In this document: piece by piece, positions 27,963-52,827 of the stretch
How positions within the stretch are numbered: the stretch's first letter is position 1
Layout of the letters: each line of letters starts with the position of its first letter
Assembly (NCBI GenBank): GCA_040757625.1
Contig: JBFLWU010000008.1
Coordinates: forward strand, 7,865 to 71,864
Length of the DNA: 64,000 nucleotides
Source: Thermodesulfobacteriota bacterium
GTDB taxonomy: Bacteria > Desulfobacterota > Desulfobacteria > Desulfobacterales > JARGFK01
Direction of reading: 5' to 3'
Notes under the pieces: model-generated
Told to the model about the DNA's origin: nothing
What the model saw: the letters and a program-made list of their open reading frames with translations, nothing else
Database searches by the model: none
Made by a program: the position numbers and the translations under genes

Positions 27963-27964
27963 TT

Positions 27965-31859: not shown

Positions 31860-31924
31860 TTTTAATGTTATATTTAAAAAATATTACGCCGGTGAACAGA
31901 TCATTATATGGCCGGCCGGCCCGA

Positions 31925-33432: not shown

Positions 33433-33469
33433 TGATCATCTCCCTGTTTGTTTTTCAAACAATTGTTCA

Positions 33470-33484
33470 GCAAAATTCATGCCA
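33470..33484 (-). promoter_or_regulatory. sigma-54 promoter candidate for the NifX-like/Mrp unit
   Basis: The minus strand reads TGGCATGAATTTTGC (GG-N10-GC), with the -12 element about 38 nt upstream of the 33432 ATG. Confidence 0.6.
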
Positions 33485-36107: not shown

Positions 36108-36118
36108 TAAATTTCTCC

Positions 36119-36135
36119 TGTTAAAAAATTTAACA
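36119..36135. promoter_or_regulatory. 17-bp perfect palindrome TGTTAAA-N3-TTTAACA
   Basis: Lies 12 nt upstream of the activator start codon, at the edge of an AT-rich tract with four TTAACA copies (36119-36200). It is about 250 bp from the sigma-54 promoter at 36383. Confidence 0.35.
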
Positions 36136-36382
36136 ATAATTAAATTTTATTTTTTAACATCTTAACATAAAAATGCAACAAAAAAATTAACACCCAGAAA
36201 AATGAGATCCTCCGGACAGACGCATTGAACACCGATGACGATGATTGTTTTTTTTCAAACCTGATTTTGCAACCGGCCTTATTAGAGCTGATTTGCCCAT
36301 GCCTAGGGTTTGATCCCGACTTCCGCGGCCAGACATCCCTGAATACCTGGAAAACTGCCCTCCCGCCGCTTCCTGTTTGAGC

Positions 36383-36398
36383 TGGCATCCGCTTTGCA
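36383..36398 (+). promoter_or_regulatory. sigma-54 promoter for the Hdr-like operon
   Basis: TGGCATCCGCTTTGCA is a near-consensus TGGCAC-N5-TTGCA. It sits about 47 nt upstream of the first start codon and has a divergent sigma-54 activator gene. Confidence 0.7.
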
Positions 36399-36444
36399 GT
36401 AACCGGGTCGGTAAAGTATCTAAAACCTATTGATGGAATGACCC

Positions 36445-36696
36445 GTGTTGAAAAATAAACCGGATCATATTCTCGATTTAAGAGGGGCGATTCCTCCCAT
36501 TACCTTGCTGAAAGTAAGCCAGGTTTTCAGAGAAATGAAGCCGCATGAAATTTTGGAAATTCTTTTCCGGGATCCCGATACGCGAACCGACCTCTTCAAG
36601 GTTCTGCCGCCTTTTTCCTACGAACTGATGATGATGGAAGAGCTTGAGGAGGAATCTTCATTTCGGGTTCGGATGAAAAAAAGCCGGAATTTCTAA
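36445..36696 (+). CDS. TusA/SirA-fold small protein lacking the CPxP cysteine
   Basis: 83 aa. LDLRGAIPPITLLK aligns to the TusA LDxRGLxCPxPxLK motif, but no Cys is present anywhere in the protein. GTG start with a weak RBS. Confidence 0.55.
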   Translation: MLKNKPDHILDLRGAIPPITLLKVSQVFREMKPHEILEILFRDPDTRTDLFKVLPPFSYELMMMEELEEESSFRVRMKKSRNF

Positions 36697-36804
36697 ACCT
36701 TGCTCTAAACGAGAGGGTACCCCGGCCATGAATAAAACAAGTAAGCAACAGACAGCAAAAGGGCTCATCGCGTTCTTTTTCATGCAGAAATCAGGAGGGT
36801 GTTC

Positions 36805-39800
36805 ATGTCCATAAAAATTGGGTTCTTTATTTGTCACTGCGGCATCAACATCGCTTATAGAGTACGGGTGGAGGAGGTGGCGGCCTTCGCCCGCAAACTC
36901 CCCAACGTGGTGGTTGCCAGGGACTACAAGTTCATGTGTTCGGACCCCGGCCAGGAACTGATCGAAAAAGATATTCGGGAATACGGTCTGAACCGGGTCG
37001 TGGTGGCCTCCTGCTCACCCCGACTCCATGAGAAAACCTTTCGCGGGGCCTGCGAACGCGCCGGTCTCAACCCCTATATGTTCCAGATGGCCTCTGTTCG
37101 CGAGCAAGTCTCCTGGGTCACGCCGGATGAAGAGGAGGCCACCCGTAAGGCAAAAACCCTTGCGGCCGCCGCCATTAACCGGGTCAACTACCATCACAGC
37201 CTCGAAACCCGTGAAGTCGATGTGCATCCGGACGTCTTGGTGGTGGGGGGCGGCATCGCCGGCATGCAGGCGGCCCTGGACGTCGGCAATTCCGGTCACA
37301 AGGTTTACCTGGTTGAAAAACAGACAACCATCGGCGGTCATATGCTGCAGTTCGACAAAACCTTCCCGACCCTTGACTGCGCTGCCTGTATCGGCACGCC
37401 CAAAATGGTCGAAGTGGCCCAAAATTCTAATATTGAACTCTTCTCCTACAGTGAGGTCAAGGAGGTGTCCGGGTACATCGGCAATTATACGGTAAAGATT
37501 CACCGCAAACCTCGGTACGTCAAGGAGAGCGTCTGTACGGGCTGCGGAGAATGCGCCGGTGTCTGCCCGGTATCTCTCCCCAGTGAATGGGATGAAGCAC
37601 TGGGAAACCGAAAGGCCGTTTACCGCTCTTTTCCCCAGGCCGTCCCCATCACCTTCTGCATCGACAAAAAGGACCGGGCCCCCTGTGTGACGACCTGCCC
37701 GGCGGGAATCAACGTTCAGGGGTATGTCCAGCTGATCGGTCAGGGTAAATACAAGGAGGCTGTCGCGCTGATCATGGAAAAGCTTCCTCTGCCGGGGGTG
37801 TTGGGACGCGTGTGTCCGCACCCCTGTGAAAAACAGTGTCGCCGCCAGGAAGCCGATGAAGCCGTCGCCATCCGGGAATTAAAGCGTTTCGCCGCCGACC
37901 AGGTTGGCCCGGCGGATTTACCGCCGCCTGAAATCGAGGACCGCAGCGAAAAAGTGGCAGTGGTGGGCTCCGGGCCGGCCGGCTTGACGGCCGCCTATTA
38001 CCTGCGGTTGAAAGGTTATGCGGTAACGATTTTCGAGGCCCTTCCAAAGCCGGGCGGCATGCTCCGCGTCGGTATTCCCGATTACCGCCTGCCCCCGGAA
38101 GTACTCGACAAGGAGATTGGCTATATTCTCCGGCTGGGGATTTCCATTGAAACGAACAAACGTTTGGGGCGGGATTTTACCCTGGAAAGTCTCAAATCCG
38201 AGGGGTTCAGCGCCATATTTCTGGCAATCGGTGCCCACAAGAGTCTGAATATCAATATTCCGGGTGAAAACGACTTCAAGGGCGTTTTCAATGCCGTGGA
38301 CTTCTTGAGGGAAATTAACCTGGGAGGCCGTAACCGTCCAGGCAAGGATGTTGCCGTTATCGGCGGCGGCAACGTCGCCATTGACGCCGCTCGCATCGCC
38401 AAGCGCCTGGGCTGCGATTCCGTGACGGTGGTTTACCGTCGCACCCGCAATGAAATGCCGGCCTATCCCGAGGAAATTAGAGACGCCCTGGCGGAAGGAA
38501 TCCAAATTCACTACCTGACAGCGCCGGTGGGGATCGTTGGTGATAACGGCGTCGTCTCCGGCCTGAAATGCATCAAAACCGAACTGGGGGCGCCCGACGC
38601 CAGTGGACGCCGCCGTCCGGTGCCGGTGGAAGGTTCGGAGTTCTTGATCGAATGTGACGCGATTATCGGCGCCACCGGGCAGCGGATTGACGGTGACTGG
38701 ATCGCGGCGGAGAAAGGTCCGGATTTAACCCGGCGGGGCACGATTGCGGTAGATCCGCACACCATGCAAACATCCCTTGCGCACATATTTGCTGCCGGCG
38801 ATGCGGTCACCGGTCCGGCATCGGTGGTTGAAGCCGTTGCCGCCGGGCGCAAAGCGGTGGAAGCCATTGATCGGTATCTCAATGATGAAAATCTGGAGGA
38901 ATACGCTCAAATATTGGCGGCCGAGGAGGCTCCGGGTCAGGACTGGCAGGAAATACCCGAAAACACATACAGACGCAAACGGTCACAGCCCGCCCACCTG
39001 GCGGCGGCACATAGATCCACCAGTTTTGACGAGGTAAACGGCGGCTTTTCGGAAGAGCAGGCCCGCCAGGAGGCCGATCGGTGCCTGAATTGCGGCATCT
39101 GTTCCGAATGCATGGAATGTGTCAGGGTCTGCGAAGCCAATGCCATTGACCACAGCATGAAAGCCGAAGAAATCGAAGTCAAAGTGGGCAGCATCATTGT
39201 CGCAACAGGGTATGACCTCATGGACCCCACCCCCCTGAAACAATTCGGGTATGGCTCCTATCCCAACGTGTTTACCAGCCTTGAGTTCGAACGCCTCAGC
39301 AATGCCACCGGACCGACCGGGGGCAAAATTCTGATCCGGGATGAAAACGGCGAATTTACCAAGTCCCCTGCCAGCGTGGCGATTCTGCACTGCATCGGCA
39401 GCCGCGATGTGAATTATCACGAATACTGCTCCCGTGTCTGCTGCATGTATGCATTGAAATATTCCCATCTGATCAAGGAAAAGGTGGGTCACGATACGGC
39501 CGTCTACGATTTCTATATCGATCAGCGCTGTTACGGCAAAGGCTATGAAGAGTTTTATAAAAGATGCCAGGAGGAAGGCACCACCTTCATCAGGGGGAAG
39601 GTCGCTGAAATTACAGACCGCGCCGTCAAACCCGAAGAAGCGGGCAAGCTCATCGCCGTTGCCGAAGACACCCTTCTGGGGAGTGTTCTGCGCGTGCCGG
39701 TGGACATGGTGGTCCTGTGTTCCGCCATCGAAGCACGCCGGGATGCCAATGAGGTCGGTCGCATATTCGGAGTCAACCTGGGTGCGGACGGATTTTTTCT

Positions 39801-40215
39801 GGAGGAGCACCCCAAGCTGGGCCCGTTGAACACCGCCACGGACGGCGTGTTTCTAGCGGGCGCCTGCCAGTCTCCCAAAGACATTCCGGATACCGTCGCC
39901 CAGGCCTCGGGGGCTGCTGCCAAGGCCCTTTCCCTGGCAACCCGAGGGGTCGTGCAGATACCGTCGACCATCTCCTGGATCGATCCGGATGTCTGCGCCG
40001 GCTGTCAGACCTGTATCGGTTTGTGTCCGTATACGGCGATTGAGTTTGATGAGCGCCGGAGGATTTCGGTGGTCAATGAAGCGCTGTGCAAAGGCTGCGG
40101 CAGTTGCGCCGGATTTTGTCCCAGCGGCGCCGCCCAGGTAAAGCATTTCAACAAGCGCCAGATATTTGCGGAGTTTGACGGCATTATCGATGCCTTACAC
40201 TCGGTGGGAATGTAG
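36805..40215 (+). CDS. HdrA-like flavoprotein with inserted GltD/NfnB-like NAD(P)H module (HdrL-type fusion, about 1136 aa)
   Basis: HdrA N-domain (FFICHCGINIA...ASCSPRLHE), FAD fold VVGGGIAGMQAALD, CTGCGECAGVCP. GltD-type CPAGINVQGY / VCPHPCEKQCRR, VAVVGSGPAGLTAA, VAVIGGGNVAIDAAR. The HdrA fold then resumes (TSLEFERL, HCIGSRD, CSRVCCMYALK) and ends with 2x CxxCxxCxxxCP. Start at ATG 36805 behind aggaggg. Confidence 0.87.
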   Translation: MSIKIGFFICHCGINIAYRVRVEEVAAFARKLPNVVVARDYKFMCSDPGQELIEKDIREYGLNRVVVASCSPRLHEKTFRGACERAGLNPYMFQMASVREQVSWVTPDEEEATRKAKTLAAAAINRVNYHHSLETREVDVHPDVLVVGGGIAGMQAALDVGNSGHKVYLVEKQTTIGGHMLQFDKTFPTLDCAACIGTPKMVEVAQNSNIELFSYSEVKEVSGYIGNYTVKIHRKPRYVKESVCTGCGECAGVCPVSLPSEWDEALGNRKAVYRSFPQAVPITFCIDKKDRAPCVTTCPAGINVQGYVQLIGQGKYKEAVALIMEKLPLPGVLGRVCPHPCEKQCRRQEADEAVAIRELKRFAADQVGPADLPPPEIEDRSEKVAVVGSGPAGLTAAYYLRLKGYAVTIFEALPKPGGMLRVGIPDYRLPPEVLDKEIGYILRLGISIETNKRLGRDFTLESLKSEGFSAIFLAIGAHKSLNINIPGENDFKGVFNAVDFLREINLGGRNRPGKDVAVIGGGNVAIDAARIAKRLGCDSVTVVYRRTRNEMPAYPEEIRDALAEGIQIHYLTAPVGIVGDNGVVSGLKCIKTELGAPDASGRRRPVPVEGSEFLIECDAIIGATGQRIDGDWIAAEKGPDLTRRGTIAVDPHTMQTSLAHIFAAGDAVTGPASVVEAVAAGRKAVEAIDRYLNDENLEEYAQILAAEEAPGQDWQEIPENTYRRKRSQPAHLAAAHRSTSFDEVNGGFSEEQARQEADRCLNCGICSECMECVRVCEANAIDHSMKAEEIEVKVGSIIVATGYDLMDPTPLKQFGYGSYPNVFTSLEFERLSNATGPTGGKILIRDENGEFTKSPASVAILHCIGSRDVNYHEYCSRVCCMYALKYSHLIKEKVGHDTAVYDFYIDQRCYGKGYEEFYKRCQEEGTTFIRGKVAEITDRAVKPEEAGKLIAVAEDTLLGSVLRVPVDMVVLCSAIEARRDANEVGRIFGVNLGADGFFLEEHPKLGPLNTATDGVFLAGACQSPKDIPDTVAQASGAAAKALSLATRGVVQIPSTISWIDPDVCAGCQTCIGLCPYTAIEFDERRRISVVNEALCKGCGSCAGFCPSGAAQVKHFNKRQIFAEFDGIIDALHSVGM

Positions 40216-40393
40216 CCGGGCCAGGGGCCGGCATTCAGGGTCGGGTGCCAGGCAAAACAGATCTTGAAAACTAAAAGTCCTCATAATTTTGAAATTCGCT
40301 GAAACGATTATGACTCAAAAAGGAACGACATGAAAGCGTTTGCCCCTGAATACCAATTACCGGAAACGAGTTTAAAATATTTTGGAGGCAACG

Positions 40394-40816
40394 ATGGAAG
40401 ATTTTGAACCGAGTATCATCGCCTTTGTCTGTAACTGGTGCACCTACACTGCAGCCGACCTGGCCGGAACGTCGCGCTTGACATATCCCAAAAACGTCCG
40501 GTTGATTCGGGTCATGTGCACGGGGATGGTCGATCCCCAATATGTCATCAAAGCCTTTCTGGAAGGCGCCGACGGCGTGCTTGTCAGCGGCTGCCATCCG
40601 GGCGATTGCCATTATATCAATGGAAACTTTAAAGCCCGGCGGCGGATCAAACTGTTAAAGGAAATCCTGCCGCAATTCGGATTTGAACCCGAAAGACTCC
40701 GGTTGACCTGGATCGGCGCCAGTGACGGCATCCAGTTCGCCGAAATCATGCAGCAACTGGTATCGCAAATCAAAAACCTGGGACCGAACCAGGCCAAACT
40801 GAAAATGGTGATTTAA
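40394..40816 (+). CDS. MvhD-like (methyl-viologen-reducing hydrogenase delta subunit family) [2Fe-2S] protein
   Basis: IIAFVCNWCTYTAADLAG...VMCTGMVDP...VSGCHPGDCHY hallmark. Start ATG 40394 behind ggagg. Confidence 0.87.
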   Translation: MEDFEPSIIAFVCNWCTYTAADLAGTSRLTYPKNVRLIRVMCTGMVDPQYVIKAFLEGADGVLVSGCHPGDCHYINGNFKARRRIKLLKEILPQFGFEPERLRLTWIGASDGIQFAEIMQQLVSQIKNLGPNQAKLKMVI

Positions 40817-40885
40817 ACGCTGAGAACCGGTGTCGGCGCGACATTACCTTGAATATCGGTTGACACGCTATTTTGGAGGAAAGAG

Positions 40886-42031
40886 ATGGCTACAACGTGG
40901 AAGTTTGAAACTAAAGATCAGGCGCTTTTGGAATCGCTGCAGGAACTGTTACGGTCCGTTCTGGAAATGGAAGATATCAGCGCCGTTCTAGTCCCCCGGC
41001 GTCTTCCCATGAAAAATATGGTGATGCCGACGCTGGTGAGCGACCCGGAAAAGCTCGACGGGATCGATCCGCTCTCCCCGGCATTTCCCATGAACGCAGC
41101 CAAGATCGTATCCAGGCTCACCCGCAAATCCATGGGGGGCAAAGTGGTGGCGGTTTTGCGTCCCTGTGAAATCCGGGCATTCATCGAATTGGTCAAACTC
41201 AAGCAGGGGCAAACGGATGAACTCGTCATCATGGCCATCGACTGCCTGGGCGCCTACCGGAATTCGGATTATTTTAAATTTGTCGAAAAAGATTTCGAAG
41301 CAGCAGCCCGGCGCTTTTATCAGAGCGTGCTTTCCGGCCGCGGCGCCGCCGTGGACAACGTCGATCTGGCAGAGGCCTGCAAGGTCTGTGAATATCCGGT
41401 TGCAACCCATGCCGATATTCTGATCGGCCTTTACGGCGTTCCCACCGATGACCACTTCATCGTTCAGGGGCTGACCCCTGCGGGTGAAGCGGTTTTGAAT
41501 CCGCTCAGCCTTGCCAAGGCACAGGAGCCGCCGGAGCGCCAAAAAACAGTTGACGAGCTGATCGCCGCCAGAACGGCCTATCGCGATCAAATGTTTGCGC
41601 GTACCGCCGAAGCCACCGCCAGCCTGGAAAAATTGACGACCTATCTGGCCAATTGCGTCAACTGTTACAACTGCCGGGTCGCCTGTCCGGTCTGCTACTG
41701 CAAGGAATGCGTATTCGTCACGGATGTGTTCAACCATGAACCGGCTCAATATCTGAGGTGGGCGGCCCGCAAGGGCGTCATCAAAATGCCCACTGATACC
41801 GTTTTTTATCATATTACCCGGCTGGCCCATATGAGTACGGCCTGCGTCGGTTGCGGCCAGTGCTCCAACGCCTGTCCCAACGACATCCCGGTAATGGAGC
41901 TCTTTCGCACCGTGGCGGCGCACACGCAGAGGGGATTCAACTACGAGGCCGGACGCAGCCTGGAAGAAAAACCGCCCCTGTCTGAATTTCGTGAAAATGA
42001 ATTCAACGAGGTGGTAGGGATGTCCGCATAA
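40886..42031 (+). CDS. FrhB/FdhB-like iron-sulfur protein (2x[4Fe-4S] plus FrhB-type domains)
   Basis: 381 aa. VLRPCEIRAF...AIDCLG, CVNCYNCRVACPVCYC, CVGCGQCSNACP. The family call is from the overall pattern only. Confidence 0.6.
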   Translation: MATTWKFETKDQALLESLQELLRSVLEMEDISAVLVPRRLPMKNMVMPTLVSDPEKLDGIDPLSPAFPMNAAKIVSRLTRKSMGGKVVAVLRPCEIRAFIELVKLKQGQTDELVIMAIDCLGAYRNSDYFKFVEKDFEAAARRFYQSVLSGRGAAVDNVDLAEACKVCEYPVATHADILIGLYGVPTDDHFIVQGLTPAGEAVLNPLSLAKAQEPPERQKTVDELIAARTAYRDQMFARTAEATASLEKLTTYLANCVNCYNCRVACPVCYCKECVFVTDVFNHEPAQYLRWAARKGVIKMPTDTVFYHITRLAHMSTACVGCGQCSNACPNDIPVMELFRTVAAHTQRGFNYEAGRSLEEKPPLSEFRENEFNEVVGMSA

Positions 42032-42051
42032 AAACTGGAGAGGTGTTAACG

Positions 42052-43359
42052 ATGACAACTGCAGCAGTCAAACTCGGAAAGAAGAAAGCGAGCCTATTTA
42101 TCGATAAAGTCAAAGAGCTTCTGCCGGAAGGCGGAAATTTGAACCTGTGCCTCACCTGCGGCGCGTGCACTTCCGGCTGCCCGGCGTCGGGACTGGAGGA
42201 GATGGATCCACGCAAGTTTCTGCGCATGGCGGCGCTGGGATTGGACGAAGAGATCACTGCAACGCCCTGGGTCTGGATGTGTACCATGTGTAAGCGCTGT
42301 ATTTACGTTTGCCCGATGCAGATCGATATCCCCCAGTTGGTGTATCACGCCCGCAACGCCTGGCCGCGTGAAACCCGACCCAAGGGTATCCTGGGCTCCT
42401 GTGATATGGCCCTGCGCAATGACAGCTGCAGCGCCATGGGGGCTTCCCCCGAGGATTTCCAGTTCGTGGTGGAAGACGTACTGGAGGAATACCGCGAAGC
42501 CCAGCCTGAATTTAAAGACATGCAGGCGCCCATCGACAAGCAGGGGGCCTATTTCTTTGTGAATCAAAACTCCCGCGAGCCGGTAACCGAACCGGACGAG
42601 ATGGTGCCCCTCTGGAAAATCCTGCATCTGGCGGGCGCCGACTGGACTTACGGCAGCAAGGGCTGGGGGGGAGAAAATTACTGCATGTTCCTTGCTGATG
42701 ACCAGGCCTGGGAGCACATCGCCCGGACCGCCGCCAAGCAGGCCGATGTACTCGGCTGCAAGGTCTTTCTCAACACCGAGTGAGGGCACATTACCTTTGC
42801 AGTCCGGGCCGGACTGAAAAAATTCAATATCGAACATAAGTTTGAGGTTGCCAGCATCTACCAATACTACGCCAAATGGGTCCGGGAGGGAAAATTGAAA
42901 ATCAACGCCGACTGGAACAAGGATTTGAAGATCAAGTTTACCGTTCAGGATCCCTGCCAGATCGTGCGCAAAAGCTTCGGAGATCCGGTGGCGGATGATT
43001 TGCGTTTTGTGGTCAAAACGTTGGTGGGCGAAGAAAATTTCATCGAGATGCATCCCAACAAAAGCAACAATTACTGCTGCGGCGGCGGCGGCGGCTTTCT
43101 GCAGTCCGGTTATGTCGAGGCCCGCCGTAAATACGGCGAGCTGAAACTCAACCAGATCTTGGCCACCCGGGCGGATTACTGCATTACGGCCTGCCACAAC
43201 TGTCACGCCCAGATTCACGATTTGGCCGAACACACGAACGCAAAGTATCATACGGTTCACTTGTGGACCCTGATCTGCCTGTCCCTGGGAATTCTGGGGG
43301 AAAACGAACGCGAATATCTGGGGCCGGATTTGAAAGAGGTGGCCGTTTATGGCGCTTAA
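42052..43359 (+). CDS. HdrD/DsrK/GlpC-like CCG-domain Fe-S oxidoreductase, predicted selenoprotein (UGA at 42781-42783 read as Sec)
   Basis: Track ORFs 42043-42783 and 42895-43359 are in the same frame, and the 111 nt between them contain no stop. Joined product: CLTCGACTSGCP, CTMCKRCIYVCP, then KVFLNTE-U-GH...FTVQDPC...YCCGGGGG...CHNCHAQ, which is one intact CCG domain. Confidence 0.75.
42800..42816 (+). promoter_or_regulatory. candidate bacterial SECIS hairpin
   Basis: cagtcc-gggcc-ggactg stem-loop starting 17 nt after the in-frame UGA. Confidence 0.5.
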
Positions 43360-43360
43360 T

Positions 43361-43444
43361 GGGGTCAGGGGTCGGGTTTCAGAGGTCAGGAGTCATAGGT
43401 TCTTTTCCTTGCTCCCGACACCTGAGCCCTGATACCTGAAACCC
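43361..43444. repeat. imperfect inverted repeat in the hdrD-like/hdrA intercistronic spacer
   Basis: gggtttcagaggtcaggagtca... mirrors ...tgagccctgatacctgaaaccc. It is preceded by direct ggtcagg-like repeats. Confidence 0.45.
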
Positions 43445-43496
43445 ATAAATCGGAATACGAGGTTAATACACGACAGATTATCAAAGAGGCTTTATC

Positions 43497-46400: not shown

Positions 46401-46970
46401 GCCGGCGGCAGCCCTGTCAGCGTCAAAGGCTATGATCCCATCCTGGGGCGTCCCGTGGAAATCGAGGCCGATCTGGTGGTCCTTTCCATGGGGGTGGTGC
46501 CCGGCCTGCCGGCGGACTTGGCGGCGTCCCTGGGAACTTGTCTGGATCAAGACGGTTTTTTTCAGGAGGCTGAGGCCAAATGGCGACCGGTCGACGCCAT
46601 CAAGGAAGGCATATTCGCCTGCGGGCTGGCGCACTCGCCCCGTTCCATCGCCGAGGCGGTTACCACCGCTGAAGCGGCGGCCCAGCGCACCCTTCGGATT
46701 CTGTCGCAAAAATTTCTACCGGCCGGAAAAATTGTGGCCGGGGTCCATCATGCCCTGTGCAGCCTGTGCCAACGCTGTATCGATGCCTGCCCCTACGGCG
46801 CTCGCACCCTGGATGAGGACGTGGAAAAAGTCTTGGTAAACCCCGTGATGTGCCAGGGCTGCGGTTCCTGCGCCGCTGTTTGTCCCAACAGCGCATCGTT
46901 TTTGGAGGGATTTCATGAAGAACAGATGTTTGAGACGATCGACGCCGCCTTGGAGGGAACTTTCGGATAG
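43497..46970 (+). CDS. tandem HdrA-like flavoprotein with embedded response-regulator receiver domain (1157 aa)
   Basis: FAD fold VVGAGISGIRAALD, 2x CxxCxxCxxxCP, REC at aa about 189-306 (RILVVDDE, LMLLDIKMPEMDG, VVMMTAY, DYLIKPF), then TSLEFERL / IQCVGSRD / CSNVCCM. A second HdrA module follows (ICTCG, GACLPC, IVGGGIAGMTAALA, QCVESRE, CSRICCSSALK, terminal 2x[4Fe-4S]). Confidence 0.87.
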   Translation: MKKKVGTALVVGAGISGIRAALDLAENGYGVKLIDRSPHLGGILTQLDYQFPTNRCGMCKMLPLVDRDASSQYCLRKGLFHENIEILTSTELVSVAGESGNYRVKLRQKPSWVDPELCVGCGACVPVCPVEVPDAFNAALARRKAIYLPVPHAIPNPFAIDVTACTRCGACEAVCPTGAIRLSDQERKMFRILVVDDELIVRDSLKAWLDDEEGFMVDTAESGPDALDKLTKNSYQLMLLDIKMPEMDGVEVLRKTKDILPDIQVVMMTAYATVETSVEAMKIGALDYLIKPFDPETLVPKILQLYEDLETSRAREVEVGALVLCGGSSYYNPADGKNTFGYKNLPGVITSLEFERLISGTGPCQGRLTRPEDGKPIRKIAWIQCVGSRDLQSSADFCSNVCCMIAVKEALLAREKFGEAVETTVFYMDMRTFGKSYQRYRNAAEKTHGVHFERGRVHSVIRDGTTDQNGEDLSVRYADAGGAIRDERFDMVVLAVGQRPVAGTIELSKQLDIPLNPWGYCQTEPFSMTKTGKDGIVVGGAYSGLKDISESVIQASAAALSASRAIHSVGGSLALETEPAPEQAGLARELPRTLVAICTCGDALSEFARSLELSARLQSDPAVSAVEFVDRICTAAGWETLLQVVEKHRPNRILIGACLPCVYAPKIKALAGRAGLNPSLTDVVDIRSPAFETLDPEKPADTKHIIAMMASALLTGLARLKRVDPSPVATIKVQQQALIVGGGIAGMTAALAIADHGFHVDLIEKEDRPGGNLTWLRGTLEGQAVKPLLDGTLAKVEKHPLIEVRTQTHVVGAYGQVGNFFTTIENQDGRTDTLRHGVIILATGGAEAIPSAYHYGESDVIITQKELEQKLDRNEIDPLKLESVVMIQCVESREEPRNYCSRICCSSALKHALALKQINPEIEIFIYYRDMMSYGFMETYFTRARQAGVIFIQYDPMQKPEVIPATEAAGGSPVSVKGYDPILGRPVEIEADLVVLSMGVVPGLPADLAASLGTCLDQDGFFQEAEAKWRPVDAIKEGIFACGLAHSPRSIAEAVTTAEAAAQRTLRILSQKFLPAGKIVAGVHHALCSLCQRCIDACPYGARTLDEDVEKVLVNPVMCQGCGSCAAVCPNSASFLEGFHEEQMFETIDAALEGTFG

Positions 46971-47002
46971 AAGCCATCCTAAAAATAGCCGATGACGTTT
47001 AA

Positions 47003-47102
47003 GGGCAAGGCGCAAGCGGCTCAACCGAGCTTATCGCAGGCCGACGAAAAAGCGCAGCATACCCGAAAATATGGGAGCATTTCCAGGAGGTTTGCAGCGC
47101 AG
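47003..47102. repeat. intergenic repeat, family A, inside the Hdr operon
   Basis: gggcaaggcgcaagcgg...gacgaaaaagcgcagcatac...atatgggagcatttcc...gtttgcagcgcag is collinear with the 7037-7112 core. Lies in the hdrA-REC/hdrC spacer. Confidence 0.65.
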
Positions 47103-47167
47103 ATATGGAGCGTTGAAATAGCTTCCAATAAAAATTGCGACATTTTATTCATCACTGAGGATTGACC

Positions 47168-47740
47168 ATGAATCAACCGGAGCTTAAGCAAAAAGAAAAC
47201 ACACCGAATTCTCTGCCGGATCCGCTGGTATCGGTCCAGAATATGATCAAAGCCTGTATCCAGTGCGGTACCTGTACGGGTTCCTGTCCCAATGCCTTTG
47301 CCATGGATCCGACCCCGCGCCAGTTGTGGCGCAGGGTCCTGCTGGGGCAAACGGACGAAATATTCAGGAGCCAGACATTCACGCTGTGTTCAGCCTGTTA
47401 TTATTGCACCCTGCGGTGCCCCCGGGGCCTGCCGTTGACCGAGGCCATGGGTGCGCTCAAGCAGATCGCCGTCCGCGATGACCTGAAACGATACAAAAAG
47501 AGTATTCGGTTCTACAAAAGCTTTCTCAGCAGCGTTCGCCGCCATGGTCGCGTGCATGAGATGGAGTTTATGACTCTTTATTTCCTGTCCATGAAAAGTC
47601 CGTTTCTGCCGCTTAAGTTTACCCCCCTTGGACTGCGCCTGATGGGTAAAAGAAAAGTCGGCGTCGAAATCCCGTCCCGGAAACCGAATCCTTTGGACGC
47701 CATTTTCCGCAAGGTCGAAGAGATGGAGGAGCGCTCATGA
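47168..47740 (+). CDS. hdrC: heterodisulfide reductase subunit C-like (2x[4Fe-4S])
   Basis: CIQCGTCTGSCP and CSACYYCTLRCP with HdrC-type spacing. ATG 47168 behind gagga. Confidence 0.85.
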   Translation: MNQPELKQKENTPNSLPDPLVSVQNMIKACIQCGTCTGSCPNAFAMDPTPRQLWRRVLLGQTDEIFRSQTFTLCSACYYCTLRCPRGLPLTEAMGALKQIAVRDDLKRYKKSIRFYKSFLSSVRRHGRVHEMEFMTLYFLSMKSPFLPLKFTPLGLRLMGKRKVGVEIPSRKPNPLDAIFRKVEEMEERS

Positions 47741-48666
47741 AATATCTCTACTATCCTGGTTGTTCACTGGAAGGAACCGCCCTGGAGTACAATGAATCCA
47801 CCAAGGCATTCATGCGGGCCGTGGGCGCGGAACTGATCGAACTGGATGACTGGACCTGCTGCGGCGCCACCGCCGTCGAATCGGTCAGCCGCCTGTTGGC
47901 CCTGGCGCTGCCCGCCAGAAATATCGCGTTGGCGGAAAAAATGGATGATTCCAAAGATATCCTCGTCCCGTGCAGCGCCTGCTACCTGAACCTGAAAAAA
48001 GTAGAAGAAAAAACCCGCAAGGAACCCGAACTTCAAAAAAAACTGAACGAAATTTTAAGCATAGAACAACTGCGACTGCAAGGCAAAGTCCGGGTCCGGC
48101 ATCTTCTGGACGTGGTTGCCAATGACCTGGATCCCACGGTCCTTCGGAGCCGGGTTCAACAATCCTTTTCCGGATTTAAGATTGCGCCGTATTACGGCTG
48201 TCAGTGCCTTCGCCCTTACCGGGTTTTTGACGATCCGGAAGACCCGCGTTCCATGGAACCGCTGATTGAAGCAACCGGGGCGGAAGTATTTTCCTGGGAC
48301 ATGGGAGGCAGGTGCTGCGGCGCCTCCCATATGAATACCAAAATGGAGGTGGGGCTCAGCCTGGTAGCCGCCATATTGAAACAGGCCAAAGGGGCTGATG
48401 CCGTCATTACGGTCTGTCCCATGTGCCAGATGAACCTGGAGGCATATCAGCGCAGGGCTGCAAAACAATTAAATGAAGATCTGGACATCACCATACTCTA
48501 TCTGCCGCAGCTCTTGGGACTGGCCATTGGCTTGTCGGAAAAGGACCTGCGCCTCGACTTGAACCTGTCACTAAAAAAGCAGTTTCGTGAAAAGCTGAAC
48601 GATAGACCTGTTCTTCCGGAAAACGCAGCCGAAAGCAGCCGGCAGACCGTTTTAACCAACGCCTGA
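47737..48666 (+). CDS. hdrB: heterodisulfide reductase subunit B-like (two CCG domains)
   Basis: YYPGCSLEG...WTCCGAT...PCSACYLN and YYGCQCLRP...RCCGASH...VCPMCQMN. ATGA overlap with hdrC. Confidence 0.88.
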   Translation: MKYLYYPGCSLEGTALEYNESTKAFMRAVGAELIELDDWTCCGATAVESVSRLLALALPARNIALAEKMDDSKDILVPCSACYLNLKKVEEKTRKEPELQKKLNEILSIEQLRLQGKVRVRHLLDVVANDLDPTVLRSRVQQSFSGFKIAPYYGCQCLRPYRVFDDPEDPRSMEPLIEATGAEVFSWDMGGRCCGASHMNTKMEVGLSLVAAILKQAKGADAVITVCPMCQMNLEAYQRRAAKQLNEDLDITILYLPQLLGLAIGLSEKDLRLDLNLSLKKQFREKLNDRPVLPENAAESSRQTVLTNA

Positions 48667-48693
48667 AAAAGAGGTTATGTCGGGGACCCTCTA

Positions 48694-50982
48694 ATGAAAG
48701 GTGCTTTCACGTCGTTTAATAATTTGCGCCACAGCCTGGGATTTAAGCTGATTTTAACCGTCGGCGTCACCCTGCTGCTGTCCATCGGGATCTGGGCTTT
48801 CTTTAACATCAAGTACCAGCAGGCGAAGCTCATATATCATATCGTTGCCGATGCCGACCGGTTGAGCCACACCATCATCCTTGGCACGCACGATGCCATG
48901 CTGCACGACTCAAGAGGCGATATCGCCCGGATCATCGAAAACATCGGTCGGCAAAAAGAACTTCGCGCCTTACGAATCTACAATAAAGACGGGGTGGTAA
49001 AGTATTCGAGCCGGCCGGCCGAGATTGACCAAGCCGTTGATATCCAGGCAAGAGTCTGTTCGGTATGTCATCTCTCGAGTCCGCCGCTGTCTCAGGTTGA
49101 TTTGGCAAAACGGGCCTGGTTTACCACCACGCCGAAAGGGTCGCGCCAGATGGAGATCGTTACGCCGATCCGGAACGAACCCCGGTGCACCTCCGGTCCT
49201 TGCCATATCCATTCGGGTGAAAAAAAATTTTTAGGCGCATTGAACTTAATTTTTTCCCTTGAGCAGACTGAAAAAGAGATCCTCCATCTTGAAAAAGGAA
49301 TCATTGCGCTGGCGGGTTTCGTTTTTCTGGTAACCTCCACGATTATTTTTGTTTTCGTGATGAGATTCGTCAATCTCCCCATCAAGAAGCTGATCATCGG
49401 CACCCACCGGATTGCCAAAGGAAATTATCTCGGCCAGGTGGACATTTCCGGGCCAGACGAAATGGGGCAATTGGCAGCCGCCATAAACAAAATGGGTCAA
49501 GAAATCTGGGAAAATCAGGCGGAGCTCAACCGTCAACGAAACGAATACCAATCGCTCTTTGACCATGTCCCCTGCCTGATTACCGTGCAGGACAAAGACT
49601 ACCGTCTGATCGGGGTTAACCGCGAATTTTCTGAAAAGTTCAGGCCGACCCTGGGCGAATACTGCTACCAGGTCTACAAGGGACGCAGCAGTAAGTGCAG
49701 TGAGTGTCCGGTCGAACAGACCTTTAAAGACGGAATGTCACATTATGCGGAAGAAACCGGTTCAGATAAGGATGGAACGGTGACCCACTGGATCGTAAAA
49801 ACAGCGCCCATTCGCAATATCAACGGAGAGATTGTCGCCGCCATGGAAATGAGCGTGGACATCACACACAGCCGGATGCTTGAAGAAAAACTGGAAGAGT
49901 CGGAAAGGAAATATCATGAAATTTTCAATAATATGCCCAATCCAGCCTTTGTTCTGGATGGGCATAAGCTGCAAATTTTAGACTGCAACCAGCGTGTAAA
50001 AAATATTTACGGCTTCAGCAGGGAAGAGTTGATTCAAACCTCATTTCTCGATCTCTTTAAGGATAAAGAAATGGGAGCGAATACCTTAAAAATCAGAAAC
50101 TCCAGCGTACTGCATCAGGCGACGCACCTGAGAAAGACCGGTGAGACCATTTATGTGGATATCTGGATCTCGCCGCTGATATACGAAGGACAATTGGTAT
50201 TTCTGGTGACCACCAGCGATATCACCCAGCGGCTTGAAACCGAACAGCAGCTCATCCAGGCCGGTAAAATGGCCACCCTTGGCGAAATGGCCACCGGTGT
50301 GGCCCATGAGCTGAACCAGCCCCTTTCGGTTATCAAAACCGCCAGCAGCTTTTGCATCAAAAAGATTCAAAAAAACGAAGAAATAGCCGATAAAACCCTC
50401 TTCACCATGCTGAATAAAATAGACGGCAATGTCGACCGGGCTACCAAAATTATCACGCATATGCGACAATTCGCCAGAAAGACTGATATGAACCTGGTGA
50501 AAGTGCAGATCAACGACATCCTGCAGCGGGCCTTCGAGATTTTCAGCCAGCAGTTGAAGCTGAGAGGAATTGAAGTCGCCTGGCATTTGGCGCCGGATCT
50601 ACCGCTCGTCACAGGTGACCCCGACCGGCTGGAGCAGGTATTTATCAACCTGATCTTAAACGCCAGAGAGGCCATGGAGGAAAAATCAGCCTCCATGGCC
50701 GCAGAAAGCATTGAGAAAAGAATAACGCTTAAAACAGCCGCAAATGGGGAAAAGGTTACCGCTGAAGTCTGTGACACGGGAATCGGAATCCCCAAGGCGG
50801 TTGCGGACAAAATTTTCGAACCGTTCTTCACCACCAAAGAAGTGGGGAAAGGGACCGGGCTGGGGCTCTCTATTAGTTATGGTATCGTTAAAGACTGCGG
50901 CGGAACCATTCGGGTCAAATCAGAAAGCGGCCAGGGAGCGTGTTTTATCATAACGTTTCCTCTGCCAAACAAGGCGCAATGA
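48694..50982 (+). CDS. sensor histidine kinase: TM - periplasmic heme-c-type domain - TM - HAMP - PAS(Cys4) - PAS - HisKA - HATPase
   Basis: Two TM helices flank about 165 aa carrying CSVCH (CxxCH) and CTSGPCH (CX4CH). HAMP follows, then PAS with VPCLITVQD...CYQVY...CSECP. H-box VAHELNQPLS, then NLILNAREAM, DTGIGIP, GTGLGLS. Confidence 0.88.
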   Translation: MKGAFTSFNNLRHSLGFKLILTVGVTLLLSIGIWAFFNIKYQQAKLIYHIVADADRLSHTIILGTHDAMLHDSRGDIARIIENIGRQKELRALRIYNKDGVVKYSSRPAEIDQAVDIQARVCSVCHLSSPPLSQVDLAKRAWFTTTPKGSRQMEIVTPIRNEPRCTSGPCHIHSGEKKFLGALNLIFSLEQTEKEILHLEKGIIALAGFVFLVTSTIIFVFVMRFVNLPIKKLIIGTHRIAKGNYLGQVDISGPDEMGQLAAAINKMGQEIWENQAELNRQRNEYQSLFDHVPCLITVQDKDYRLIGVNREFSEKFRPTLGEYCYQVYKGRSSKCSECPVEQTFKDGMSHYAEETGSDKDGTVTHWIVKTAPIRNINGEIVAAMEMSVDITHSRMLEEKLEESERKYHEIFNNMPNPAFVLDGHKLQILDCNQRVKNIYGFSREELIQTSFLDLFKDKEMGANTLKIRNSSVLHQATHLRKTGETIYVDIWISPLIYEGQLVFLVTTSDITQRLETEQQLIQAGKMATLGEMATGVAHELNQPLSVIKTASSFCIKKIQKNEEIADKTLFTMLNKIDGNVDRATKIITHMRQFARKTDMNLVKVQINDILQRAFEIFSQQLKLRGIEVAWHLAPDLPLVTGDPDRLEQVFINLILNAREAMEEKSASMAAESIEKRITLKTAANGEKVTAEVCDTGIGIPKAVADKIFEPFFTTKEVGKGTGLGLSISYGIVKDCGGTIRVKSESGQGACFIITFPLPNKAQ

Positions 50983-52148
50983 ACCAAAATCAAAAAAAAG
51001 CTCCGGTTTTACTGGTAGATGATGAAGAAGATATCCGTGACGTTTTGGGGATATCCTTATCAGATTGCGGCTATGATATCATCATGGCTGAAAATGGCGA
51101 AACAGGCTTGCGCCTGTTCCGGGAAATTAATCCGCAGATTGTCCTGACAGACATTAAAATGCCCGGCATGGACGGAATTGAGCTGCTGCGAAGGATCAAA
51201 TTCGAAAATCAGGACACGGAAGTCATCATGATCACTGGTCATGGAGACATGGATCTGGCCATTGAAAGCCTTAAACATGAAGCCACCGATTTTATCACCA
51301 AACCGATCAATGTGAATGCCCTAGAAATTTCGCTGAAACGGGCCCACGACAAGATTCGTATGCGGGAGCAATTGCGAGAATATACCCAAAACCTTGAACA
51401 GCTGGTGCGCGAAAAGACCGAGTTGCAGGATCACCTGTCATCTCTGGGTCTGATGATCAGCTCCATTTCGCACGGCATCAAGGGGCTCTTAACCGGCCTG
51501 GACGGCGGGATGTATCTGCTCGATTCGGGTTTCGCCAAGCAAAAACAGGATCAAATCCAGGAAGGCCTCGATGTTGTTAAGATCATGGCTGAACGCATCC
51601 GCAAGATGGTCATGGATATTCTCTATTACGCCAAGGAGCGCAACCTGTCCTGGGAGCGCGTCAACGTCTTAAGCTTTGCAAATGAGGTCACCCAGACGGT
51701 GGCACCGAAATTCAAGAAGCAGGGTATCAAACTGGTCTGTGAATTCGATCCTTCGTTGGATGAGTTTGAGATCGATCCCGGTTCGGTCCATGCGGCCCTG
51801 ATCAACATCCTGGACAACGCTGTGGATGCCTGTGTCAACGACAAATCCAAAGAGGCTCACCAAGTCCGCTTTAACGTCAAAGATGATAAAGATCACATTG
51901 TATTCTTCATATCCGACAACGGTATCGGTATGGATGCCGAGACCCGTGAAAAAATCTTTACGCTTTTTTTCTCGTCCAAAGGGAAGAAGGGAACGGGATT
52001 GGGCTTGTTTATTTCCGATCGGATCATCAAGCAGCACGGCGGAACAATTGAGGTCAGTTCGACTCCCGGAAAAGGATCCAAATTCAGTATTAATATTCCA
52101 AAAATAATCCCCAAGGCCGTGAGGCGACCCCATAATTCAGGCGCTTAA
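50979..52148 (+). CDS. hybrid receiver-histidine kinase (REC - HisKA-like - HATPase)
   Basis: Start MNQNQKK with ATGA overlap onto the upstream kinase. REC (LLVDDEEDIRD, VLTDIKMPGMDG, DFITKP). H-region SISHGIKGLLTG, then NILDNAVDAC, DNGIGMD, GTGLGLF. Confidence 0.88.
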   Translation: MNQNQKKAPVLLVDDEEDIRDVLGISLSDCGYDIIMAENGETGLRLFREINPQIVLTDIKMPGMDGIELLRRIKFENQDTEVIMITGHGDMDLAIESLKHEATDFITKPINVNALEISLKRAHDKIRMREQLREYTQNLEQLVREKTELQDHLSSLGLMISSISHGIKGLLTGLDGGMYLLDSGFAKQKQDQIQEGLDVVKIMAERIRKMVMDILYYAKERNLSWERVNVLSFANEVTQTVAPKFKKQGIKLVCEFDPSLDEFEIDPGSVHAALINILDNAVDACVNDKSKEAHQVRFNVKDDKDHIVFFISDNGIGMDAETREKIFTLFFSSKGKKGTGLGLFISDRIIKQHGGTIEVSSTPGKGSKFSINIPKIIPKAVRRPHNSGA

Positions 52149-52159: not shown

Positions 52160-52179
52160 CCCCGCAGCAAGTTGCGGGG
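52160..52179 (+). terminator. stem-loop after the operon end (terminator-like, no U-tract)
   Basis: ccccgcag-caag-ttgcgggg begins 12 nt after the stop at 52148. A related ccccgc.gcaag motif recurs at about 52235 and about 55902. Confidence 0.4.
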
Positions 52180-52405: not shown

Positions 52406-52732
52406 GTGCCCAGACCCAAAAAAACCAGATTTGTATCAGCCTATCCGGTCATTGCGGCCTTTGTCCCCCACGGCATGCCCATCACCGGTGAAGTTTCCAT
52501 GTCCATCGAGGAGCTAGAAGCTGTCCGGCTCAGTGATTTTGAGAACCTGGACCAAGAAACCGCTGCCGGCATGATGGAGGTCTCCCGCCATACCTTCGGC
52601 CGAATTCTATCAGATGCACGCAAAACCATCGCCGAAGCCCTGGTTACCGGAAAGGCACTGAAAATAGCGGGGGGTGTCTATGAACTCCGGGGTATGGGAA
52701 GGCGCCGCCGCAGAAGGGGGCGAGGATGGTAG
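52406..52732 (+). CDS. DUF134 (UPF0251) family HTH protein
   Basis: MPRPKKTRFV N-terminus, EELEAVRLSDFENLDQETAAGMMEVSRHTFGRIL (sigma-70 region-4-like HTH). GTG start. Confidence 0.8.
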   Translation: MPRPKKTRFVSAYPVIAAFVPHGMPITGEVSMSIEELEAVRLSDFENLDQETAAGMMEVSRHTFGRILSDARKTIAEALVTGKALKIAGGVYELRGMGRRRRRRGRGW

Positions 52733-52827
52733 CGTATAGAGGCTAAATAAGATTAAAATTTTTAAGCGGACGCCATGTTTCTCTATTCCAACCCGGACAA
52801 TAAACAAAAAACAAGGAGGTGGAAGAG

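Follow-up and report, generated by a model that had tools for sequence, protein, structure and literature searches.

Do the ten co-directional genes at positions 36383-52148 of a 64-kb stretch of DNA (the window, 64,000 nucleotides of contig JBFLWU010000008.1) encode one electron-bifurcating machine, and if so, which redox partners would it join and how would it be controlled? The window is part of a 135.9-kb contig from an NCBI metagenome-assembled genome labeled Thermodesulfobacteriota. An earlier note, made from the sequence alone, had described here a near-consensus sigma-54 promoter at 36383 followed by genes for a Cys-less TusA-like protein, an HdrA with an inserted NAD(P)H module (HdrL), MvhD, an FdhB/FrhB-like protein, a selenocysteine (Sec)-containing HdrD-like protein, an HdrA-REC-HdrA fusion (REC, receiver domain), HdrC, HdrB, a heme-c sensor kinase, and a REC-kinase. 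Our domain calls, taken from Pfam, NCBIfam, and PDB sequence searches, recover all ten genes with these domains and the divergent sigma-54 activator as well, and found no hydrogenase, formate dehydrogenase (FdhA), or NuoEF-type gene in the cluster. On domain content and gene order, the ten genes are an operon-like cluster for a large NAD(P)H-linked heterodisulfide reductase (Hdr)-type iron-sulfur flavoenzyme system (Table 1). The observations of the earlier note are confirmed; its interpretation, a single bifurcating or confurcating machine under both transcriptional and receiver-level control, is partly supported.

We slightly favor the view that the locus is a cluster, controlled by sigma-54 and a PAS-domain activator, for a soluble multi-flavin Hdr-type bifurcating or confurcating system of a sulfate-reducing bacterium of the Desulfobacterota. 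Evidence that bears on it includes the conservation of gene order among relatives, the exchange of one pyridine-nucleotide module for another within HdrL, and a regulatory cassette that is conserved upstream of the genes.

Gene order, a probable pyridine-nucleotide port, and the regulatory cassette

A comparison of synteny across the Desulfobacterota, as proposed in the earlier note, bears out the cluster. An HdrA-REC-HdrA query against GTDB species representatives gave 594 confirmed loci, of which 80 were kept (designated by L numbers), and the window proteins were mapped onto these by tblastn. HdrL, MvhD, and the FdhB-like gene lie directly 5′ of HdrA-REC-HdrA in 21 REC-bearing loci, and also in L082; loci with this core belong to Desulfobacteraceae, Desulfosarcinaceae, Syntrophobacteraceae, and others. 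The gene order of L082, on a 4.6-Mb contig, is identical to that of the window, including the activator and both REC-kinases, with 68% identity in the central protein; L085 resembles L082, its MvhD and FdhB-like gene lying behind a cut upstream gene. With the core kept in more than 20 loci of other genomes and the full order in L082, the arrangement is, as judged by synteny, beyond chance. The CCG-domain partners vary: HdrC-HdrB follow HdrA-REC-HdrA in many loci; the Sec protein stands between the FdhB-like protein and HdrA in three loci (L005, L009, L021) and after HdrB in L006; and in L024 (2668-4965) a 765-aa double HdrD-like protein, in which ferredoxin dicluster regions and CCG domains each occur twice, lies 5′ of HdrL, and other loci without HdrC/HdrB have similar matches upstream.

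HdrL residues 6-291 and about 768-1133 cover nearly all of methanogen HdrA (PDB; E 1e-209 to 1e-215), corresponding to residues 5-291 and about 293-653 in 5odc numbering, and residues ~293-778 between them align with NfnB/GltD-type modules (NfnA 9n5u, 8oh5_C, 4ylf_B, 5jca_L; StnC-type chains also matched). HdrL is defined by a complete HdrA interrupted by a GltD/NfnB-type module and with mvhD next downstream, and the window has this arrangement, mvhD following after 166 nt. The cluster carries the NfnB-like insert only and not the NfnA-type gene that an NfnAB transhydrogenase would require. The true start of HdrL is likely the ATG at 36805.

The strongest sequence-level evidence that we obtained for a pyridine-nucleotide port comes from two loci, L083 (2.8-Mb contig; 1925-6988) and L084 (1206-6515), in which HdrL is replaced by four genes encoding i) a 277-aa protein 86% identical to HdrL residues 3-258; ii) a NuoE-like protein; iii) a NuoF-like protein; and iv) a 600-aa protein with a NuoG-like N-terminus (Fer2_4), residues 232-600 of which are 81% identical to HdrL 764-1138. 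The rest of both loci is as in the window (activator and TusA-like gene, then MvhD, FdhB-like protein, Sec protein, HdrA-REC-HdrA, HdrC, HdrB, kinase, and REC-kinase), and the NuoEFG-like modules sit at exactly the NfnB insertion point of the orthologous HdrA. Because two unrelated NAD(P)H-oxidizing modules share one insertion point in HdrA, the insert is probably where pyridine nucleotide electrons enter or leave, and because the NfnB insert takes the place of the NuoE/NuoF/NuoG-like modules, the cluster needs no NuoEF genes. The swap supports, and strengthens, the NAD(P)H link that the earlier note had proposed. Units of nuoEFG-mvhD-hdrA have been reported from Desulfotignum phosphitoxidans (PMC4046663). 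The FdhB-like protein can be aligned from end to end (22-365) with the FdhB subunit of methanogen Fdh-MvhD-Hdr supercomplexes (E 8.5e-26 for 8rvu_E to 2.5e-22); since it has no catalytic partner of its own, a wire between modules is the simplest reading of it.

Upstream of the cluster, activator, repeats, promoter, and TusA-like gene are, by their joint recurrence, a conserved cassette. Orthologs of the activator (57-63% identity) are divergent from TusA-like genes in eight Desulfocapsaceae loci, and PAS/sigma-54 activator genes are likewise divergent from TusA-like genes in L082-L084. The hexamer TGTTAA/TTAACA, present in five copies within 74 nt as compared with 0.33 per kb across the window, marks presumed activator-binding sites; L082 and seven or eight loci from Desulfocapsaceae have the array again, next to the activator start, together with a -24/-12 element 55-62 nt 5′ of the TusA-like start (among them L042, L048, L050, L054, and L070). 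The surrounding noncoding sequence has diverged in these loci, and only the array and the -24/-12 element are kept. Related loci without the TusA-like gene or activator cassette mostly lack the strict sigma-54 pattern 5′ of HdrL, and have extra genes upstream, such as the 765-aa double HdrD-like protein or a PAS activator. Next to the activator gene, the convergent REC-kinase/activator pair is also present in L082, and orthologs of this REC-kinase (60-70% identity) adjoin the cluster in five further loci (L004, L006, L012, L013, L018).

The same cassette, together with a Sec CCG protein 74-79% identical to that of the window, heads a different operon in eight Desulfocapsaceae loci (L054 5640-15030; also L042, L048, L050, L052, L062, L070, and L072): MetF-like protein, REC-less HdrA-HdrA fusion, MvhD, MetV, and MetF, by its genes a MetFV-Hdr-type methylene-tetrahydrofolate reductase cluster. 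Because the cassette also heads this operon, the TusA-like and Sec CCG pair with the activator makes up a portable unit found in two kinds of Hdr system. In agreement with the Cys-less protein of the earlier note, the TusA-like protein has IPPI in place of CPXP, and the cysteine is missing from 8 of 8 aligned orthologs; the CPXP Cys is the experimentally defined sulfur-binding residue of TusA (PMC11094781). The protein lacks this N-terminal mark of a sulfur carrier and scores far under the NCBIfam TusA cutoff, leaving a fold-level Pfam match.

The promoter itself combines a -24 GG and -12 GC at the correct spacing with an adjacent enhancer-binding protein and putative binding sites upstream, the features expected of a sigma-54 promoter, and lies inside the intergenic region 36108-36444. 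The strict pattern has two matches in 64 kb against 0.25 expected, both of them intergenic, 5′ of a gene, and adjoining activator genes; at ≤2 mismatches the 36383 site is the single best match in 64 kb. The relaxed search of the window (≤2 mismatches) gave 20 sites against 20.8 expected, no excess over chance, and no further site within the intergenic gaps of the cluster. Boxes at a fixed distance and TTAACA repeats beside the activator gene strengthen the case for the sigma-54 control that had been proposed. Downstream of the promoter the ten genes are separated by junctions of -4 to 197 nt, among them the 166 nt between HdrL and mvhD and the 137-nt and 197-nt gaps flanking the HdrA-REC-HdrA gene; no terminator-like sites were found on the plus strand in these intergenic gaps. 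A GC-rich hairpin lacking a U tract is the likely end of the unit, judging by its position, and a promoter scan places a strong sigma-70-like promoter for the next gene at 52344. A long minus-strand ORF (open reading frame; 42094-43260) opposite the HdrD-like gene was assumed, with the other long antisense ORFs, to be spurious.

Three HdrA modules and two different CCG subunits had been noted, and the motifs agree. The GxGxxG FAD motif and the C-x(9-13)-C-x3-CC cluster motif are present in each of the three HdrA modules, HdrC has two [4Fe-4S] motifs, and HdrB has two complete CCG motifs, as in HdrABC; membership is at the family level only, because all NCBIfam equivalog scores fall under their cutoffs. 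The true start of HdrC is likely the ATG at 47168. The Sec protein combines two ferredoxin-type [4Fe-4S] Cys motifs, a degenerate first CCG domain that carries Sec, and one complete C-terminal CCG domain; its nearest named families are HmcF (3.4e-47), TmcB (3e-44), and DsrK (1.3e-32), all under NCBIfam cutoffs. The TGA stands at the same codon in 17 of 17 orthologs from two orders, and is followed 19-35 nt downstream by a 7-bp hairpin resembling a selenocysteine insertion sequence (SECIS; -14.1 kcal/mol), 98.9% of whose cells are paired among orthologs, with one compensatory G-C to U-A pair in three sequences. An in-frame UGA kept among orthologs and a hairpin shortly downstream are the marks of a bacterial selenoprotein; because Rfam gave no match in the whole-window scan or in a permissive scan around the UGA, support for the SECIS comes from comparative data only. 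In a weak BLASTP alignment GWGG stands opposite RCCG of the second CCG motif of HdrB, with Sec 36 residues further on; the alignment of the N-terminal pseudo-CCG domain with HdrB is too weak to set Sec against the CxxC ligands, and a PDB sequence search returned no DsrK-like chain on which Sec could be placed.

A receiver domain in HdrA and the co-encoded kinases

NCBI annotation of the HdrA-REC-HdrA protein reads only "response regulator". Residues 7-187 correspond to 5odc HdrA 145-314, that is, the start of the flavin domain and the inserted ferredoxin domain; the flavin domain resumes from residue 316, and a second HdrA module with N-terminal and C-terminal ferredoxin domains comes next. 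In each of the 120 best homolog clusters (63-83% identity, 99-100% coverage) the protein is full length and has PF00072, so the fusion is a large family and not an assembly artifact. We found no description of a receiver domain in HdrA in the literature searched, nor anything usable there on sigma-54 and Hdr together.

The receiver has the residues expected of a functional one, an acidic pair (D196, D197), a phospho-acceptor Asp (D241), a Thr/Ser (T269), and a Lys (K291), all invariant in 23 homologs (63-83% identity), and the catalytic residues are kept in 22 of 24 loci. In the AlphaFold2 model, used for the REC fold and junctions only (mean predicted local distance difference test score 70, with poor Fe-S segments and low confidence in the beta5 region), the receiver has the canonical (beta-alpha)5 fold. 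It begins ~8 residues beyond the final Cys motif of the inserted ferredoxin domain, and helix 5 (295-311) leads directly on to the first strand of the flavin domain. Because of these modeled junctions, the signaling face of REC (alpha4-beta5-alpha5) would lie at the hinge between ferredoxin cluster and FAD.

Receiver and kinases also tend to occur together. Among loci with at least 6 kb downstream, a kinase ortholog is present in 12 of 18 with REC and 1 of 31 without (Fisher p = 2e-6, a test that ignores shared ancestry, with the REC flag uncertain for L039 and L069). The two most distant loci, L019 and L027, have a degenerate REC (DD to DP or AG, Thr to Gly or Ile, Lys to His or Thr) and lack the orthologous kinase and REC-kinase. 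The sensor kinase carries CxxCH (CSVCH) and Cx4CHxH (CTSGPCHIH) in the loop between its two predicted membrane helices, both invariant in 17 orthologs, as expected from the heme-c sensor first described; a REC-kinase, whose start in the window is likely the ATG at 50979, comes after it in twelve loci (L002, L009, L011, L015, L016, L020, L021, L024, and L082-L085). The window has five kinase cores and four REC domains, three of the latter being kinase N-termini and the fourth lying in HdrA. Both sigma-54 activators in the window use PAS and not REC, and no DNA-binding response regulator or other non-kinase receiver was found in the 64 kb. Because the other three RECs belong to kinases, the HdrA fusion is the sole visible terminal acceptor for the local kinases.

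A second, paralogous kinase and REC-PAS-kinase are encoded at 53933-55813 and 58735-60759 (kinase core 66% and REC 75% identical to the cluster's pair); they bracket genes for an Rrf2 regulator, a pyridine-nucleotide-disulfide oxidoreductase, and a DUF1641 protein (56077-58662).

Table 1. Features of the Hdr-type cluster and its upstream region, with coordinates in the window.
Feature	Position	Strand	Basis or remark
REC-histidine kinase hybrid (REC-HisKA-HATPase)	33536-34702	+	Pfam; convergent with activator gene
Sigma-54 enhancer-binding protein: PAS, AAA+, Fis-type HTH (helix-turn-helix), no REC	34722-36107	-	Pfam Sigma54_activat 8.7e-71, PAS, HTH_8; divergent from cluster
Five TGTTAA/TTAACA hexamers, including an 11-nt perfect inverted repeat	36119-36192	.	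Beside activator start codon
Sigma-54 promoter, TGGCAT-N5-TTGCA	36383-36398	+	Pattern scan; 62 nt 5′ of first start codon
TusA-like protein with DLRGAIPPI, no CPXP cysteine	36445-36696	+	Pfam TusA 1.1e-11
HdrL: full HdrA with NfnB/GltD-type FAD/NAD(P)H and 2x[4Fe-4S] module inside inserted-ferredoxin domain	36799-40215	+	PDB; Pfam Fer4_20 and Pyr_redox_2
MvhD-type [2Fe-2S] connector	40382-40816	+	Pfam FlpD 2.8e-55; NCBIfam VhuD, HdrA2 C-terminal region
FdhB/FrhB-like flavin/Fe-S protein, no FdhA partner	40886-42031	+	PDB 8rvu_E, 9t1s_M, 7bkb_E
HdrD-like selenoprotein (HdrC-HdrB fusion type), in-frame TGA	42043-43359	+	Translation, Pfam, NCBIfam, BLASTP
UGA (Sec) codon 42781-42783 and SECIS-like hairpin 42800-42816	42781-42816	+	Comparative
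HdrA-REC-HdrA fusion	43497-46970	+	PDB, Pfam, AlphaFold2 model; REC aa 189-306 (DNA 44061-44414)
HdrC, 2x[4Fe-4S]	47168-47740	+	Pfam; NCBIfam CoB_CoM_SS_C 3e-22
HdrB, two complete CCG motifs	47737-48666	+	Pfam CCG x2 1.4e-25; NCBIfam HdrB, SdhE
Sensor histidine kinase: transmembrane helix, extracytoplasmic loop, transmembrane helix, HAMP, two PAS, HisKA, HATPase	48694-50982	+	Pfam, including Mcp40H-20_sensor 1e-7
REC-histidine kinase hybrid	50979-52148	+	Pfam; start overlaps kinase stop codon
GC-rich hairpin without U tract	52160-52179	+	12 nt past last stop codon

One machine or several

In the system that we slightly favor, NAD(P)H would enter or leave via the NfnB/GltD-type module that HdrL carries in its inserted-ferredoxin domain; MvhD and the FdhB-like protein would act as Fe-S and flavin wires joining HdrL to HdrA-REC-HdrA, by analogy with FdhB-MvhD-HdrA of methanogens; and electrons would arrive at two thiol/disulfide-type sites, the HdrC/HdrB pair with its two non-cubane clusters and the DsrK/TmcB/HmcF-like protein with one CCG cluster and selenocysteine. 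The acceptor would most likely be DsrC (as disulfide or trisulfide) or a similar protein-bound sulfur species, with ferredoxin as the low-potential partner. The divergent PAS activator, acting at the conserved TTAACA sites, may turn transcription on, and activity may additionally be tuned by phosphorylation of REC at Asp241, the phosphoryl group being supplied by the cascade of sensor kinase and REC-kinase(s) encoded alongside; phosphorylation could move the inserted ferredoxin domain or alter how the enzyme oligomerizes, and gate one electron path in this way. It is by inference that we speak of a single complex, of bifurcation and the direction of electron flow, of DsrC as the acceptor, and of phosphoryl transfer to the enzyme. 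A link to sulfate respiration is suggested by analogy with the proteome of Syntrophobacter fumaroxidans (see below), by the six genes shared with a Syntrophobacter locus (L012), and by the nearness of the Sec protein to HmcF, TmcB, and DsrK.

Several observations weigh against this picture: the NfnB module sits in what is the low-potential exit of methanogen HdrA, and because it is wired into that exit the electron path is not simply transferable from the methanogen enzyme; the 137-197 nt gaps could conceal internal promoters; no dsrC gene adjoins the cluster; the co-occurrence of REC and kinases is uncorrected for phylogeny, and the REC-bearing loci are also the closest relatives; in Desulfonema magnum, HdrA-REC-HdrA/HdrC/HdrB stand by themselves, and the surrounding 10 kb hold no kinase; the TusA-like and Sec CCG proteins occur in the MetF/MetV clusters of Desulfocapsaceae; and the scheme gives the Cys-less TusA-like protein no role. 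The separate occurrence of the modules in D. magnum and Desulfocapsaceae counts against the single machine of the earlier note, and because the modules occur apart in other genomes, one physical complex is not required. The genes could instead encode two or three enzymes that are co-located and co-regulated but form no supercomplex, namely an NAD(P)H-dependent reductase of HdrL, MvhD, FdhB-like protein, and Sec CCG protein, and a ferredoxin-dependent disulfide reductase of HdrA-REC-HdrA, HdrC, and HdrB. The solitary D. magnum genes would fit such a division, as would the HdrL-MvhD pairs at other loci of Desulfobacterium autotrophicum (PMC2702500), the change of CCG subunit from locus to locus (HdrCB, Sec protein, or double HdrD-like protein), and the gaps on either side of the HdrA-REC-HdrA gene; but HdrL-MvhD-FdhB-like lie directly 5′ of that gene in 21 loci, a single MvhD and a single FdhB-like connector serve three HdrA modules, and the FdhB-like protein is without a catalytic partner, so that we think separate enzymes unlikely, if the most serious competitor to one system. 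We see very little chance that the cluster is instead the electron-supply part of a MetFV-Hdr-type methylene-tetrahydrofolate reductase of the Wood-Ljungdahl pathway: activator, upstream sites, promoter, TusA-like gene, and a close relative of the Sec CCG protein do head such clusters in Desulfocapsaceae, but neither MetF (methylene-tetrahydrofolate reductase) nor MetV was found in the cluster, in the scanned ORFs of the window, or among the called genes of L082-L085. Slighter still is the chance of a Bam-type class II benzoyl-CoA reductase, an Flx-Hdr, or a sulfur-oxidizing sHdr system. Its resemblances are superficial: an HdrA-HdrA fusion, MvhD, and HdrD-like protein as in BamDEF, HdrABC and MvhD as in Flx-Hdr, and a TusA-fold protein with two CCG subunits as in sHdr; an aldehyde:ferredoxin oxidoreductase (AOR)-family gene also lies 20 kb upstream. 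That gene stands behind unrelated genes, however, and the defining ones are absent: no AOR/BamB, BamC, or NuoEFG-like BamGHI gene in the cluster; no FlxA, FlxB, or FlxC domains among the ten genes or flanks; and no LbpA or DsrE in the cluster or flanks, the TusA-like protein moreover lacking the essential CPXP cysteine (sHdr criterion from PMC11094781) and the HdrA modules being full size, unlike the 349-residue sHdrA-type protein of PDB 6tjr. We have rejected the Bam-type, Flx-Hdr, sHdr, and MetFV readings, whose defining features fail.

For the kinases we advance, tentatively and as something we would sooner doubt than assert, a two-component phosphorelay whose terminal output is an electron-bifurcating flavoenzyme and not a transcription factor. 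The membrane kinase, with its two heme-c-type motifs, would sense periplasmic redox state or a gas, the signal would pass via one or two REC-kinase hybrids to Asp241 of the HdrA REC, and the low-potential path of Hdr would be opened or closed within seconds, with sigma-54 control layered on top. The receiver-level control that the earlier note had thought probable gains from the co-occurrence of REC and kinases, from the loss of the kinases where REC is degenerate, and from the lack of any other non-kinase receiver in the window. Alternatively REC could be a structural or pseudo-receiver insert in an enzyme that is not phospho-regulated, the kinases signaling elsewhere, for example to a distant response regulator. 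This would account for L019 and L027, where the protein is retained although its REC is without the Thr, the Lys, and one of the acidic residues, for the REC form of D. magnum with no adjacent kinases, and for REC-less L029, which retains a kinase ortholog; yet the five phospho-chemistry residues are invariant in homologs as distant as 63% identity, both degenerate cases are exactly those without the kinase pair, and there is no other candidate receiver in 64 kb. We consider a pseudo-receiver improbable.

We wish to stress what the phosphorelay, and the cluster as a whole, would mean. Bifurcating complexes of the Hdr type are believed to determine how much energy sulfate reducers and syntrophs gain, and the exchange of NfnB for NuoEF-type modules at the same point of HdrA identifies a probable pyridine-nucleotide port in one of them. 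A soluble, Sec-containing, DsrK-like CCG subunit that shares its cassette with Wood-Ljungdahl MetF clusters hints at a common acceptor or signal. The form of HdrA that has an intact receiver and dedicated kinases is widespread (at least 120 sequence clusters). We know of no earlier case in which phosphorylation directly controls an electron-bifurcating enzyme; should the receiver prove functional, the first one known to us would be here.

The neighborhood of the cluster adds several observations. The second strict sigma-54 promoter (TGGCATGAATTTTGCT, 33469-33484, minus strand) heads the minus-strand genes 33070-33432, 31925-32827, and 30471-31859, a unit (30471-33432) encoding a NifX-like (Nitro_FeMo-Co) protein, a NUBPL/Mrp-type P-loop ATPase, and a second PAS/sigma-54 activator. 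Both flanks (26236-29790, 31925-33432, and 52406-53429) encode NifU_N, two MinD/CbiA-ferredoxin fusions, several NifX-like proteins, NUBPL, DUF134, and DUF5320, and such genes recur beside orthologous clusters in L010, L084, and L085; they may be Fe-S or cofactor maturation helpers. Upstream of these helper genes lie a 676-aa prismane/CO-dehydrogenase-family protein (23642-25672, minus strand) and an FmdE-family protein (20931-21542, minus strand). At 13663-15849 (minus strand) and 16217-18091 (plus strand), the AOR-family (tungsten-type) gene has a PBP-like/HTH regulator and a periplasmic binding protein as neighbors. Its surroundings, 20 kb away from the Hdr cluster, contain no Bam genes. 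Near the far end of the window, a NarI/DsrM-like membrane cytochrome b (62908-63567, plus strand) is followed by a DsrK/HmeD-like Fe-S N-terminus (63603-64000, plus strand) that runs off the end, which together look like a membrane DsrMK/HdrDE-type module.

Comparison with known systems

The closest described relative is HdrABC/HdrL of S. fumaroxidans (Sfum_0819-0824), which comprises hdrABC, an FdhB-like Fe-S protein, MvhD, and HdrL, is abundant in the proteome only with sulfate, and has been proposed to confurcate electrons, possibly to DsrC (PMC5947623). Its six core genes occur in the same order in the window (HdrL, MvhD, FdhB-like, HdrA, HdrC, HdrB), which has these six and four more; what sets it apart from the S. 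fumaroxidans cluster is the TusA-like gene, the DsrK-like CCG protein with Sec, and the divergently placed activator cassette. The published account makes no mention of a REC domain or kinases (PMC5947623). L012, from a Syntrophobacter metagenome-assembled genome, has the same six genes in order, encoding proteins 54-71% identical to those of the window, with an intact REC and kinases downstream. HdrL itself was defined in D. autotrophicum HRM2 as a fusion of HdrA and glutamate synthase, with mvhD next to it, and Sec-containing HdrD paralogs were reported there (PMC2702500). The figure legend of that paper describes, at locus VIII, a tandem hdrL/hdrA (hdrL/hdrA4) with fdhB, hdrD2, and an hdrACB-like operon, and names response-regulator and histidine-kinase genes among the Hdr loci; the legend reads as the arrangement of the window, orthology here being taken from the published description only. 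PMC2702500 treats HdrL as unique to D. autotrophicum, whereas we find it widespread. The novelty of composition implied by the earlier note does not hold, since HdrL with MvhD, FdhB-like protein, and HdrABC had already been described (PMC5947623 and the legend in PMC2702500), but the refuting condition that the note had set, membership in an already characterized complex, does not strictly apply, since the cluster is neither Bam-type nor Flx-Hdr.

HdrA, HdrB, HdrC, MvhD, and FdhB of the methanogen Fdh/Mvh-MvhD-HdrABC supercomplexes (PDB 5odc, 7bkb, 8rvu) are homologous to those of the window, and the logic is presumed to be shared, with a bifurcating HdrA FAD, a high-potential site made of CCG clusters, and a wire made of MvhD/FdhB. 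The window differs in having no hydrogenase or FdhA, an NAD(P)H module grafted into HdrA, a second, Sec-containing CCG subunit, and three copies of HdrA, with a fused pseudo-dimer and a REC insert. CoM-S-S-CoB, the substrate of methanogen Hdr, is not expected in the organism of the window. FlxABCD-HdrABC of Desulfovibrio is said, by Ramos et al. in 2015 (cited in PMC10553843), to be an NADH dehydrogenase/heterodisulfide reductase acting on DsrC. Its proposed overall reaction is that which we propose here (pyridine nucleotide, ferredoxin, and DsrC via HdrABC with an MvhD-like connector), but its NAD(P)H module (FlxA/B/C) is not homologous to the NfnB insert, and unlike the window it has no HdrL, FdhB-like protein, Sec CCG subunit, or REC.

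With MetFV-HdrABC-MvhD clusters (Moorella type and the Desulfocapsaceae variant) the window shares the cassette of activator, upstream activating sites, sigma-54 promoter, TusA-like, and Sec CCG genes, the HdrA-HdrA fusion, and MvhD; those clusters are without HdrL, FdhB-like protein, HdrCB, REC, and the kinase pair, and the window is without MetF and MetV. With DsrK, TmcB, and HmcF, the CCG subunits of DsrC-reducing membrane complexes, the Sec protein shares two [4Fe-4S] motifs and a single complete CCG, but it is soluble, has no membrane partner genes, carries Sec in a degenerate first CCG, and scores far under the family cutoffs. We conclude that the cluster is of a type known from sulfate reducers, though biochemically uncharacterized, and is not new as such; what is new here is the NfnB/NuoEF module swap, the shared regulatory cassette, and the linkage of REC to kinases.

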